From assembly GCA_964576435.1 (NCBI GenBank), contig CAZNUP010000001.1, positions 294,795 through 358,794 of the forward strand: DNA of 64,000 nucleotides, given 5' to 3'. The notes under the pieces were generated by a model. It had not been told where the DNA came from and did not search any database. It saw only the letters and a list, made by a program, of their open reading frames with translations. Each line of letters begins with the position of its first letter. Positions within the stretch are counted from its first letter, which is position 1. The position numbers and the translations under genes are program-made. This document shows, piece after piece, positions 49,328 to 52,122 of the stretch. The stretch comes from an uncultured Gammaproteobacteria bacterium (GTDB lineage: Bacteria; Patescibacteriota; Microgenomatia; JAMCZE01).

Positions 49328-49864
49328 ATGGACGAACAAAATACTCAAAATCAAGAAAATTCAAAAAGTTCCAATAAGATGTTAGTCCCAGTAGTAATTG
49401 GTGCGCTCATTATTCTTGCCGTGGTCGGCATTTTTGCCTATCAAGGAATGAAAGGATCTCAGCAAGCACCAACAGAAGTAACAGGAACCCCTACAGCCAT
49501 GGTGTCTGAATCTCCAACAGGAGTTATGACCCCAGAAGTATCGCCCGCAGGAACAGAAAGTGCCAGTCCTTATAAAGACGGAACCTATAAAGCAACTGGT
49601 GAATACACAACACCAGGTGGTACAAGAGAAGTTGATGTAACACTAACTATTAAAAATGGTGTAGTTACAGACACAACCTTCACTGGTCATGCAACCGATC
49701 CAAATTCCAAGAGATTCCAAGGTGAATTTGCTGATGGCTACAAAGTCTTAGTTGTTGGTAAATCAGTTGATGGAATTACTTTGACTAAAGTTTCTGGATC
49801 ATCCCTAACACCAAAAGGCTTTAATGATGCAGTCACAAAAATCAAAGCTGAAGCGCAAGCTTAA
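49328..49864 (+). CDS. membrane-anchored extracytoplasmic FMN-binding domain protein (FMN_bind, NqrC/RnfG/PplA-like) with Thr/Pro-rich linker
   Basis: Start at ATG 49328 after a GAGGGGGTGG RBS; TM helix; …YKDGTYKATGEYTTPGGTREVDVTLTIKNGVVTD…VDGITLTKVSGSSLTPKGFNDAV… matches the FMN_bind domain including the S-G-(A/S)-(T/S) flavinylation-site region. Confidence 0.7.
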   Translation: MDEQNTQNQENSKSSNKMLVPVVIGALIILAVVGIFAYQGMKGSQQAPTEVTGTPTAMVSESPTGVMTPEVSPAGTESASPYKDGTYKATGEYTTPGGTREVDVTLTIKNGVVTDTTFTGHATDPNSKRFQGEFADGYKVLVVGKSVDGITLTKVSGSSLTPKGFNDAVTKIKAEAQA

Positions 49865-50690
49865 GTTTGAAGCAATTGGTACGGGTTGGGAAATAGATTA
49901 CACCGGTCTAGATATGGAGCGTAACATTCTGGACCGGATTGATGAGTTCGATAAAACCTTTTCTCGTTTTCGTCCCGATTCCCTTGTTTCAAAAATGTCC
50001 AAAAAGGCTGGGGTTTATAAAATGCCAGCTGATGGTTGGACAATGCTTTCCTTCTATAAAGACCTCTATGACCAAACTGATGGCTTGGTAACTCCGTTGA
50101 TCGGCAATGTTTTAGAACAAGCCGGTTATGATGCTTCATATTCTTTAAAAGAAAAAACCATTGAAAAACCGCTTTCCTGGGATGAAGCACTAGAAATAAC
50201 TAAGGAAACTATAACTATTAAAAAGCCGGTTCTTTTAGATTTTGGAGCTGCCGGTAAAGGCTATTTAATTGATATTGTTGGTGATTTATTAAAAAATAGC
50301 GGAGTGAGTTCTTTTTCAATTGATGCAGGCGGCGATATCTTGCTTTCAAATTTTGACTCAACGATTGGGTTAGAAAATCCAAGAGATGCGTCTCAAGTTA
50401 TTGGGACAGTAAAGTTGTCAAATGGCAGTATCGCGGGTTCTAGTGGCAACCGTAGAAATTGGGGTAAGTTTCACCATATAATAAATCCACAAACGCTTAA
50501 ATCAACGGAAGATGTAGAAGCTGTTTGGACTATTGGAAATTCAGCAATGTTGGCAGATGGATTAAGTACTTGTCTATTTTTTGTAGATGCGAAAAAAATG
50601 TCATTCAATTTTGAATACCTGATTCTTTATTCAGATTTCACAGTCAAAAAGTCAAATAATTTTCCAGGAGAAATTTATGAAGCTAGTTGA
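49824..50690 (+). CDS. apbE: FAD:protein FMN transferase ApbE
   Basis: …LLDFGAAGKGYLIDIV…IDAGGDILL…ADGLSTCLFF… are typical ApbE motifs. The ORF-track start overlaps the upstream gene by 40 nt; the true start is uncertain. Confidence 0.75.
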   Translation: MMQSQKSKLKRKLKFEAIGTGWEIDYTGLDMERNILDRIDEFDKTFSRFRPDSLVSKMSKKAGVYKMPADGWTMLSFYKDLYDQTDGLVTPLIGNVLEQAGYDASYSLKEKTIEKPLSWDEALEITKETITIKKPVLLDFGAAGKGYLIDIVGDLLKNSGVSSFSIDAGGDILLSNFDSTIGLENPRDASQVIGTVKLSNGSIAGSSGNRRNWGKFHHIINPQTLKSTEDVEAVWTIGNSAMLADGLSTCLFFVDAKKMSFNFEYLILYSDFTVKKSNNFPGEIYEAS

Positions 50691-52122
50691 TAAATTTCTA
50701 AACGAGACCGCGATGTACTATTTAGTATTGCGAGGCCTTGCGGGGTTAGCAGCTCTCTCTATCCTTTTTGGTTTTTTAAATCTCCTCCCATTCAGTGGTC
50801 TTCAGTTTATTGTCACCTTTGGCTTATTAGCAGTTTCTTGCTATTTCACAAACCTTTTAATCTCTAAAATTTTGAAGACCCCAATAAATAGAGAATCGTC
50901 CTTGATAACTGCTTTAATTTTGTTTTTCATCATGGCCCCGGTTAAAGATCTTCAAGATGTTGAAGTAACAATCTTGGCTGGCATCATAGCAATGCTGTCG
51001 AAATACGTTTTTGCCATTCACAAAAAACATATTTTTAATCCAGCTGCAATTTCCGCGGTAATTTTAGGACTCCTTGGCTTTGGCAACGAGATCTGGTGGG
51101 TTGGTAGCGCCATTCTTTTGCCATTTGTTCTAGTCATGGGACTCTTGATAGTTAGAAAAGTAAGAAAATTTTCAATGGTTCTAACTTTTATAGCTACTGC
51201 TCTAATAGCAATTGCCATTTTTAATCCCTTAGAAATTGTCCTTCAAGCATTTACTTCATGGCCATTAATTTTCTTTGGAACAGTGATGTTAACCGAGCCA
51301 CAAACAACACCTCCTCATAGGAAGTTGCAAATGATTTATGGTGGGCTGGTAGGTTTATTATTTGGTTCCCAGTTTGCCTTTGGACCAGTCTATTCTTCTC
51401 CAGAGTTAGCATTGGTAATTGGAAATATTTTCTCATTTGTTGTAAGTCCTAAAGAAAAACTATTCTTAAAATTAAAAACAAAAACTGAACTAGCTCCAGG
51501 AGTTTGGGAATTTTCTTTCCCAGGAAAGCTAAATTTTGAACCAGGGCAGTACATGGAATGGACTCTTCCAGAAAAAAAATCTGACAATCGGGGAAACAGA
51601 CGATCATTTAGTATTGCTTCAAGTCCAGAGGAATCGGAGATAAAAATTGCAGTTCGTATGGCTAAGGAGAAGGGGAGTACCTTCAAAAATGCACTTTTAA
51701 ATATGAATCCGGGTGATCAAATACTTGCCGGAGGATTATCTGGTGATTTTGTTTTACCAAAAGACAAAAACAAAAAAGTAGTTTTCATTGCAGGTGGCAT
51801 TGGAATAACCCCTTTTAGAAGTATTGTTAAATCTCTCGCAGATAAAAAAGAAACTAGAGATATAACACTTTTCTATTCTGTAGCTGATGATAAGGACTTA
51901 ATTTACAAAGACATTTTTAAATCCGTAAAATTTATTCCAATAAATACAACTAAGCAAGGTTTTATAACAGAAGAAATGATTAAAAAGGAAGTCCCTGATT
52001 TTAAAGATCGAACATTTTATATTTCAGGTCCACCAGTTATGGTCGATTCCTATAAAGCTTTAGTTAAAAAATTAGGAGTTTCTTCAAGAAATATTATCAC
52101 CGACTTCTTCTCTGGTTATTAA
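50677..52122 (+). CDS. membrane oxidoreductase: N-terminal polytopic RnfD/NqrB-like domain (FNPA and TEPxTTP motifs) fused to a C-terminal ferredoxin-NADP-reductase-type FAD/NAD(P)-binding domain
   Basis: N-terminal approximately 215 aa with at least 6 TM helices, HIFNPAAI and MLTEPQTTPPH. C-terminal RRSFSIASSP (RxYS FAD motif) and GGIGITPF (NAD-binding GGxGxxP). Confidence 0.6.
   Translation: MKLVDKFLNETAMYYLVLRGLAGLAALSILFGFLNLLPFSGLQFIVTFGLLAVSCYFTNLLISKILKTPINRESSLITALILFFIMAPVKDLQDVEVTILAGIIAMLSKYVFAIHKKHIFNPAAISAVILGLLGFGNEIWWVGSAILLPFVLVMGLLIVRKVRKFSMVLTFIATALIAIAIFNPLEIVLQAFTSWPLIFFGTVMLTEPQTTPPHRKLQMIYGGLVGLLFGSQFAFGPVYSSPELALVIGNIFSFVVSPKEKLFLKLKTKTELAPGVWEFSFPGKLNFEPGQYMEWTLPEKKSDNRGNRRSFSIASSPEESEIKIAVRMAKEKGSTFKNALLNMNPGDQILAGGLSGDFVLPKDKNKKVVFIAGGIGITPFRSIVKSLADKKETRDITLFYSVADDKDLIYKDIFKSVKFIPINTTKQGFITEEMIKKEVPDFKDRTFYISGPPVMVDSYKALVKKLGVSSRNIITDFFSGY

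Follow-up and report, generated by a model that had tools for sequence, protein, structure and literature searches.

We analysed a stretch of 64,000 nucleotides of contig CAZNUP010000001.1 (assembly GCA_964576435.1), hereafter the window, in which three overlapping, co-oriented genes encode a membrane-anchored FMN_bind-like protein (the partner), an ApbE-family flavin transferase and a fusion of an RnfD/NqrB-fold membrane domain with an NqrF/FNR-type FAD- and NAD(P)H-binding domain (Table 1). A previous reading of the sequence alone, called here the sequence-only reading, had picked out these genes as a flavin relay across the membrane. The three open reading frames (ORFs) lie where it had placed them, and its domain calls were borne out by Pfam, by profile searches against the PDB and by AlphaFold2 models compared with Foldseek. 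The locus is a further example of the NQR/RNF-like system, which two bioinformatic studies of 2021 and 2024 had described before, and probably serves to export electrons to the outer face of the membrane.

Organization of the locus

The three genes close a run of five co-oriented plus-strand ORFs (47641-52122) with short or overlapping junctions, upstream of which lies a divergent helix-turn-helix gene. The overlaps are of 41 nt between the FMN_bind-like and apbE genes and of 14 nt between apbE and the fusion gene. The ATG at 49328, preceded by a strong Shine-Dalgarno-like sequence, GAGGGGGTGG, is the best-supported start of the partner; other possible starts are found upstream at 49265 (TTG) and at 49295 (GTG, the choice of a public gene caller). 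The ATG of apbE at 49824 is located 41 nt ahead of the FMN_bind stop codon, and a longer ApbE N-terminus is ruled out by an in-frame TAA at 49806, six codons upstream. A programmed +1 frameshift fusing FMN_bind to ApbE over this overlap, by which ApbE would be held on the outside, was considered and rejected, since the spacing and the frames vary between the loci compared (designated by L numbers): the two genes are separated by a 5-nt gap in L003, by 2 nt in L013 and by 3 nt in L084, and overlap by 1 nt in L086.

Table 1. Coordinates of the flavin cassette, its motifs and the genes compared with it
Feature	Position	Strand	Basis or remark
FMN_bind-like partner, 178 aa	49328-49864	+	ORF; signal anchor at about residues 18-40, Pro/Ser/Thr-rich linker, C-terminal FMN_bind domain
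Variant flavinylation motif T-K-V-S-G-S-S	49784-49804	+	Read directly from the sequence
Presumed FMN acceptor, Ser159 of the partner	codon 49802-49804	+	Last Ser of the motif
ApbE-family flavin transferase, 288 aa	49824-50690	+	PF02424
Fusion, 481 aa: RnfD/NqrB-fold membrane domain and NqrF/FNR-type FAD/NAD(P)H domain	50677-52122	+	
RnfD/NqrB-fold polytopic membrane domain, residues 1-256, about 10 helices	50677-51444	+	PF03116, fold search
FNPA motif, residues 120-123 of the fusion	51034-51045	+	F, N, P and A124 invariant in the family
T-E-P-Q-T-T-P-P motif, residues 206-213 of the fusion	51292-51315	+	Aligns with TDPVTSP of Azotobacter RnfD
Cytoplasmic NqrF/FNR-type FAD- and NAD(P)H-binding domain, residues 257-481	51445-52122	+	PF00175
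RRSFS, FNR-type domain of the fusion, residues 308-312	51598-51612	+	
GGIGITP, FNR-type domain of the fusion	51793-51813	+	
Two upstream genes: 169-aa signal-anchored protein and 376-aa LIP-family alpha/beta-hydrolase	47641-49277	+	ORFs, Pfam
Patescibacteria-subclade partners	L083:3694-4176, L084:3663-4121, L086:3613-4095		No precomputed Pfam match
Patescibacteria-subclade partners	L087:3629-4093, L088:3585-4118, L089:3724-4176		No precomputed Pfam match

Structure of the fusion protein

Both halves of the fusion are recognized by Pfam, as PF03116 (NQR2_RnfD_RnfE, 40.2 bits for a cutoff of 27.7) and PF00175 (NAD_binding_1, 45.9 bits for a cutoff of 22). In the PDB, the top sequence matches of the C-terminal half are the FAD domains of NqrF (7qty, E = 2.5e-12), and partial NCBIfam matches of this domain include nqrF and BenC. 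A single-sequence phmmer search of the PDB with the fusion retrieved FNR-type domains only, and RnfD came up only with a family profile built on the membrane half. The sole sequence match of this profile, a weak one (E = 0.011), is RnfD of Azotobacter (8ahx_D), in an alignment that pairs the TEPxTTP of the fusion family with TDPVTSP.

The full-length fusion was modelled by AlphaFold2 with a pLDDT of 87.6 and a pTM of 0.84. Foldseek matches of the whole model were FNR, flavohaemoglobin and NqrF structures, the dehydrogenase domains of SpNOX among them. As this search was swamped by the FNR half, residues 1-254 were modelled separately (pLDDT 82.4, pTM 0.82). Their 15 best PDB matches are all RnfD or NqrB chains, with TM scores of 0.73-0.76 for RnfD and 0.57-0.66 for NqrB and E values from 2e-6 to 4e-4. 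The structure prediction thus confirmed the RnfD-like fold.

The motifs on which the sequence-only reading had relied (FNPA, TEPxTxP, RxxS-type and GGxGxxP) are present and invariant in 27 homologues. The conserved positions are F120-N121-P122-A124 and T206-E207-P208-x-T210-x-P212 in the membrane domain, and R308-R309-x-F311 and G373-G374-I375-G376-x-T378-P379 in the FNR-type domain, whose C-terminal aromatic residue is also conserved. Five charged or polar residues embedded in the membrane, E73, K109, K161, E207 and E243, are invariant as well. The fusion contains no 2Fe-2S domain, and neither haem ligands nor Fe-S cysteines are evident in its RnfD-fold membrane domain.

The sequence-only reading had also taken the RnfD-like domain to be an FMN-carrying substrate of ApbE, and this part of it has to be given up. 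Scanning of the whole protein in 27 fusions (that of the window and 26 homologues) did not reveal a single covalent flavinylation site of the form [ST]G[AS][ST], in agreement with the loss of the flavinylated Thr reported for the RnfD-like subunit by Huang 2024 (PMC10979944). Of the two findings said in advance to undermine the assignment of the membrane domain, an unrelated transporter family and a missing flavinylation site, only the second was thus encountered. A short loop of the fusion that is predicted to face outward (residues 133-147), in which G134, W140 and W141 are invariant, may be a shortened counterpart of the RnfD/NqrB loop bearing the flavinylated Thr. It may also contribute to a pocket for the flavin of the partner; we hold both suggestions with low confidence.

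The FMN_bind partner and its flavinylation motif

Among the families that had been proposed as a check of the domain calls, ApbE, PF03116 and PF00175 all scored above their cutoffs, whereas the partner of the window reached 17.1 bits against PF04205 (FMN_bind), under the cutoff of 22. Of its orthologous neighbours, 14 out of 15 match PF04205 at E ≤ 0.01, the best with E = 7.9e-12, and the profile of the partner family matches the solved FMN-binding domain 8p2a at 6.9e-21. By sequence, this profile matches stand-alone FMN_bind domains (8p2a, 8p2b and 3o6u) and not NqrC/RnfG. A hidden Markov model of the subclade to which the window belongs (subclade 1) detects the partners of subclade 2 at 19-29 bits.

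The partner had been called an FMN_bind lipoprotein, a description of which the second half does not hold. The N-terminal region contains no Cys, and because a lipobox Cys is lacking from the N-terminal hydrophobic anchor (peak Kyte-Doolittle hydropathy 2.96 at residues 18-36), the partner of the window is a signal-anchored protein and not a lipoprotein. Its actinobacterial orthologues in L029 and L031 bear lipoboxes. The partners generally possess basic N-termini, strong hydrophobic anchors (hydropathy of about 2-3) and stalks rich in Pro, Ser and Thr; the succession of basic residues and anchor predicts an N-in, C-out orientation.

The canonical flavinylation motif is D-x-x-[ST]-G-A-[ST] (PMC12052999). 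The SG(S/A)(S/T) region singled out by the sequence-only reading does hold a conserved Ser as presumed acceptor, within the variant T-K-V-S-G-S-S: the Gly and the acceptor are kept, the canonical Asp is absent and Ser replaces Ala. All 13 subclade-1 partners retain a Ser (12) or Thr (1) at the acceptor position. Of the 11 partners of subclade 2, 10 carry Thr and 1 carries Ser at this position, inside a V/I-S/T-G-A-T/S context, and Asp is found at position -6 in 10 of them, as in VDIVSGAT. In published mutagenesis of the motif, changing Asp to Ala was nearly harmless, and Ala-to-Val and Thr-to-Ser led to only partial loss of flavinylation (PMC12052999). Flavinylation of Ser159 is therefore plausible. 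No second ApbE, second FMN_bind protein or other motif-bearing substrate was found in the window, where the remaining [ST]G[AS][ST] matches look like chance occurrences (in DnaK, a GH39-like protein, GreA and one ORF of no known family).

An ApbE without an export signal

The ApbE of the window matches PF02424 with 144 bits (cutoff 25.6). It displays the motifs LDFGAAGKG (DxGxxGKG-like), DAGGD, HHIINP and ADGLST (ADxLxT), which we take to be the FAD/Mg active-site motifs, and such catalytic-type motifs are conserved across the ApbEs compared.

Typical ApbEs are periplasmic lipoproteins. We found no signal peptide, lipobox or membrane segment in the ApbE of the window: its N-terminus, MMQSQKSKLKRKLK, runs directly into FEAIGTGW, where the Pfam domain and the first strand of the fold begin, and its maximum hydropathy over 19 residues is 1.21. 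All ApbEs that lie beside full-length fusions and whose N-terminus is readable likewise lack a signal or membrane segment, for example 'MKQTQLIMGMPITVEV'; such signal-less enzymes are encoded in the window and by the apbE genes of L003-L031 and L083-L089. In all 15 ApbEs analysed, the hydropathy of 19-residue stretches stays at or below 1.82, and its peaks correspond to internal helices with catalytic motifs. Because the enzyme has no export signal and its presumed substrate is outside, the locus departs from the usual scheme of extracytoplasmic flavinylation.

A known cytoplasmic ApbE, that of Klebsiella pneumoniae, modifies a cytoplasmic target, and ApbE accepts tags of 7 residues (PMC12052999). 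The absence of an export signal is not discussed by Méheust 2021 (PMC8238504) or Huang 2024 (PMC10979944). Our leading explanation, which is a guess, would be that the partner is flavinylated before or during its export. Otherwise, ApbE may play a different role, or the topology predicted for the partner may be wrong.

Distribution and gene neighbourhood

Homologues of the fusion number in thousands. The best 119, leaving out the window protein itself, align over at least 97% of the query with 48-71% identity; Daviesbacteria, Levybacteria and 'Patescibacteria group' are named among them. Among representatives of clusters formed at 50% identity, the membrane-domain profile matched 574 at E ≤ 1e-30, a number that rises to 1275 at E ≤ 1e-10, and the best 150 members of this family are mostly 480-510 residues long, the length of the fused protein. 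Full-length fusions in species-representative genomes come from Patescibacteria, Ktedonospora, Alphaproteobacteria (Mesorhizobium, Methylocapsa, Phyllobacterium) and Actinomycetota. Most of these have apbE directly upstream and a signal-anchored FMN_bind partner before it, so that the order partner-ApbE-fusion recurs in Patescibacteria, Chloroflexota (Ktedonospora), Alphaproteobacteria and Actinomycetota. Eight further contexts of close homologues comprised six triads, one pair of ApbE and fusion, and one fusion alone.

Co-occurrence of the three genes in related genomes, another check that the sequence-only reading had suggested, was confirmed by unbiased clustering of the ORFs flanking the fusion at 37 loci: the only recurrent neighbours were ApbE (22 loci) and the partner (20 loci). 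The next groups were generic ABC ATPases (8) and a pair of histidine kinase and response regulator (6), the latter restricted to the second subclade; this pair stands beside the triad, on its upstream side, in L006, L012, L018, L019, L020 and L025, from Alphaproteobacteria and some uncultured bacteria. No acceptor enzyme or partner reductase is conserved near the module across the loci compared.

The secreted hydrolase and small exported protein that had been placed in the same operon are present upstream of the module, with which they are probably co-transcribed in the window, but they are not part of it. The hydrolase matches PF03583 with 83.5 bits, and the 169-aa signal-anchored protein has no Pfam match. 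The closest relative (L083, 69% identity) keeps the triad and the same upstream glycosyltransferase of the 1500-aa class without either gene. Both are also absent from the other loci, save that L010 encodes a single homologue of the 169-aa protein, unlinked to the module. They were on this account rejected as candidate acceptors or partners of the module.

About half of the close homologues of the fusion have no precomputed PF03116 match, and for the partners in the Patescibacteria subclade precomputed Pfam matches are lacking altogether (Table 1). The survey of Méheust 2021 kept ApbE and FMN_bind genes only where a signal peptide was predicted (PMC8238504). Owing to these missing Pfam matches and to the signal-peptide requirement, it probably undercounted the NQR/RNF-like system in the candidate phyla radiation, and any survey requiring a signal peptide on ApbE or on the FMN_bind protein may do so.

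Another architecture was observed in Saccharibacteria, where a gene for an FNR-domain protein is followed by apbE downstream (L051:2-2237, L078:3953-6018 and L079:741-3075). A two-domain FMN_bind protein is encoded between the two in L051, and no N-terminal signal is evident in the ApbEs of L051 and L078. This arrangement may represent a second, related cassette.

The wider window

The 38 larger ORFs that we scanned in the window are housekeeping or envelope genes or remain unassigned. They include genes for PNPase, IF-2, NusA, DnaK, GroEL, Lon, MiaA, GreA and an aminoacyl-tRNA synthetase, as well as ABC-2 transporters, very large glycosyltransferases and an L,D-transpeptidase. In agreement with the sequence-only reading, none of the 38 belongs to a respiratory family, and none besides the fusion itself to an Rnf/Nqr family. 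The G+C content of the window is low (33-44%), which together with the named homologues points to a probable Patescibacteria genome of the Microgenomates type.

Directly around the module, a convergent gene of the CYTH or class IV adenylate-cyclase-like type (52119-52661, minus strand; TIGR00318, 37.6 bits, under cutoff) overlaps the stop of the fusion gene by 4 nt. It is followed at 52700-53356 by a gene for a staphylococcal-nuclease-like protein (PF00565) that has a signal anchor and a C-terminal extension rich in Cys. A 162-aa protein encoded at 54507-54995 (minus strand) matches PF06983 ('3-demethylubiquinone-9 3-methyltransferase' domain) with 150 bits; beside it, no other quinone or respiratory genes are visible in the window. 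At 40773-47313 (minus strand), a 1523-aa glycosyltransferase with two GT2 domains, a GT4 domain and many membrane segments adjoins a 658-aa GT2 and GT4 protein, and its gene is syntenic with the module in L083. Finally, three A/B pairs of paralogous ABC-2 (PF06182) membrane proteins (19380/20175, 20985/21780 and 24426/25181; 22-42% identity) surround a single ABC ATPase gene (22607-23599) within 19380-25999.

Proposed mechanism and alternatives

The sequence-only reading had regarded the architecture as a system not yet described. In fact, Méheust 2021 defined an 'NQR/RNF-like system' as a fusion of PF03116 and PF00175 in a flavinylation gene cluster and reported 127 such clusters (PMC8238504); the system is chiefly one of Actinobacteria and the candidate phyla radiation (PMC8238504; PMC10979944). 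The window fits this definition exactly, with a PF03116 domain, PF00175 on the same polypeptide, and adjacent genes for ApbE and an FMN_bind-like protein. For a pair from Ktedonobacter, an AlphaFold-multimer model showed the two subunits in close contact, the partner docking on the outer face with its flavinylation site beside an apparent pocket for a non-covalent flavin (Huang 2024, PMC10979944). The relay that had been proposed for the window, from NAD(P)H to FAD, through the membrane domain and on to an outer FMN_bind protein, follows the same logic as the published proposal (PMC8238504; PMC10979944).

We estimate the probability at roughly 65% that the locus is a self-contained three-gene cassette of this kind, exporting electrons from NAD(P)H to an FMN protein on the outer side of the membrane. 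The FNR/NqrF-type domain of the fusion would oxidise cytoplasmic NAD(P)H on its FAD. Electrons would then cross the membrane through the RnfD/NqrB-fold domain, presumably with the help of a non-covalent flavin as suggested by Huang 2024 (PMC10979944), and would reach an FMN bound covalently to Ser159 of the signal-anchored partner. This FMN would be installed by ApbE, perhaps on the partner before or during export. Because no partner reductase is conserved nearby, the partner would be expected to pass its electrons to a diffusible or non-dedicated acceptor, for example Fe(III), free flavins, quinones or O2. In what is probably a Patescibacteria genome, with no respiratory genes among those scanned, the likely role of such a cassette would be to regenerate NAD(P)+, to reduce a substrate outside the cell, for instance iron, or both.

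Several points weigh against this interpretation. The partner of the window falls short of the PF04205 cutoff and deviates from the canonical flavinylation motif, and an export signal is lacking from its ApbE and from all those beside other full-length fusions whose N-terminus is readable. No intermediate cofactor was identified between the FAD and the outer FMN, and the direction of electron flow and the nucleotide specificity are ones that we infer. In the literature, we found no experimental characterisation of the NQR/RNF-like system, and a search there for Patescibacteria together with ApbE gave no result.

The same architecture could be dedicated to reductive iron assimilation, with NAD(P)H driving the reduction of ferric iron or ferric chelates outside the cytoplasm. 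The ferrous-iron transporter VIT1 is found in 6 of the 127 published clusters (Méheust 2021, PMC8238504), and in one Patescibacteria locus a gene for a Fur-family regulator is located directly upstream in the same orientation (L086:3104-3526). Moreover, the logic of an FNR domain joined to a membrane domain resembles that of ferric reductases and NOX enzymes, in line with the SpNOX domains among the fold matches. However, the surroundings of the module contain no iron transporter, Fur or siderophore gene in the window, nor do they in most of the loci, and the flanking genes are otherwise unrelated from locus to locus. We thus consider a dedicated iron role unlikely, if the best placed of the alternatives.

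The lack of a signal or membrane segment in the readable ApbEs, together with the in-frame stop that bars a longer N-terminus in the window, could point instead to an inward-facing membrane flavoprotein, in which the FMN_bind domain faces the cytoplasm or ApbE serves another purpose. Cytoplasmic ApbEs modifying cytoplasmic targets do exist (PMC12052999), and ApbE could alternatively act as an FAD pyrophosphatase or supply FMN to the RnfD-like/FNR protein. This is difficult to reconcile with the N-in signal anchors or lipoboxes and the Pro/Ser/Thr-rich stalks of the partners, with the AlphaFold-multimer model that puts the partner on the outer face (PMC10979944) and with the absence of a flavinylation motif from the fusion. 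An inward-facing arrangement therefore appears improbable.

We further considered a minimal redox-driven ion pump, in which the RnfD/NqrB-fold domain would couple electron flow to the export of Na+ or H+ and so supply a membrane potential to an organism that has no respiratory chain. The RnfD/NqrB-type subunit is implicated in Na+ translocation in NQR, and a pump would suit the fold of the membrane domain, its five invariant membrane-embedded residues and the wide occurrence of the system in Patescibacteria, together with the lack of respiratory genes among those scanned in the window. Yet neither the RnfA/E or NqrD/E pair nor the semicircular electron path, both believed to be required for pumping, is present, and the conserved residues could equally bind flavin. 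This makes a pump more doubtful still. We would give slightly less credit again to the combined proposal of an FMN attached in the cytoplasm and an all-flavin conduit acting as a minimal ion-translocating NAD(P)H oxidoreductase. If true, cytoplasmic flavinylation with pumping would provide respiratory-chain-free Patescibacteria with both NAD+ regeneration and a membrane potential, and the signal-less ApbE family would work unlike every characterised flavinylation system. Finally, urea and Amt/Rh channels have a related fold, but a channel or transporter regulated or energised by its FNR domain, with ApbE and FMN_bind as incidental neighbours, is hardly credible given that urea and Rh-type channels come next in the fold search with far weaker matches (E at least 0.018, TM 0.43-0.53) than RnfD/NqrB, that Pfam assigns the domain to PF03116 and that the triad is kept across four phyla, which argues for a flavin function.

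Should the electron-exporting function hold, no simpler way of bringing electrons from cytoplasmic NAD(P)H out of the cell would be known: two proteins and flavins would suffice, and neither quinone nor haem nor an Fe-S centre would take part. The cassette is common among bacteria of the candidate phyla radiation, in which little is understood of redox balance and energy metabolism.

Comparison with known systems

The cassette shares several components with Na+-NQR and Rnf: the NqrB/RnfD fold, a C-terminal domain closest to the FAD/NADH domain of NqrF, a partner from the FMN_bind domain family of NqrC/RnfG, and ApbE as maturation factor. In contrast to these complexes, the cassette has no NqrA/D/E or RnfA/B/C/E subunits, no Fe-S centres and no 2Fe-2S domain on its FNR part, and in place of the full subunit set the fusion is surrounded by genes for the hydrolase, the 169-aa protein and the CYTH-type and staphylococcal-nuclease-like proteins. 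The RnfD-like domain lacks covalent FMN, two polypeptides stand in place of six, and the expected electron path is one-way instead of semicircular.

Flavin-based extracellular electron transfer of the Listeria type (Ndh2, DmkA/B, EetA/B, FmnB, PplA) likewise combines an NADH source, an ApbE-family enzyme and a surface-tethered FMN_bind protein as last relay, whereas the membrane step would be performed here by the RnfD-fold/FNR fusion, with no demethylmenaquinone step. Indeed, neither Ndh2, EetA/EetB and DmkA/B nor the lipoprotein FmnB and PplA were found among the neighbours of the module or the scanned ORFs of the window, and unlike FmnB, a secreted lipoprotein, the ApbE of the window has no export signal or lipobox. 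With the NOX/FRE-type and PepSY-like-NAD-binding reductases, the fusion shares a cytoplasmic FNR-type domain joined to an electron-exporting polytopic domain; the membrane domains of those enzymes bind haem, whereas that of the window has the RnfD fold. The absence of a signal peptide is a feature common to the window's enzyme and the cytoplasmic ApbE of K. pneumoniae, but the latter flavinylates a soluble cytoplasmic fumarate reductase (PMC12052999), whereas the sole motif-bearing neighbour in the window is signal-anchored and predicted to face outward.

The closest match remains the NQR/RNF-like system itself, with which the window has in common the fusion, the adjacent ApbE, the membrane-anchored FMN_bind partner, the loss of the flavinylated Thr and a home in the candidate phyla radiation and Actinobacteria. 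The partners of the window's subclade differ from it by a motif xKVSGSS rather than DxVSGAT and by a sub-cutoff PF04205 score. ApbE is also longer in this subclade, at about 290 residues compared with about 245 in that of the Ktedonospora locus L013. Set against the published count of 127 clusters, the membrane-domain family comprises 574 representatives here at E ≤ 1e-30. The window adds one example to this class, in which the signal-less ApbE and the variant motif are the points worth following.

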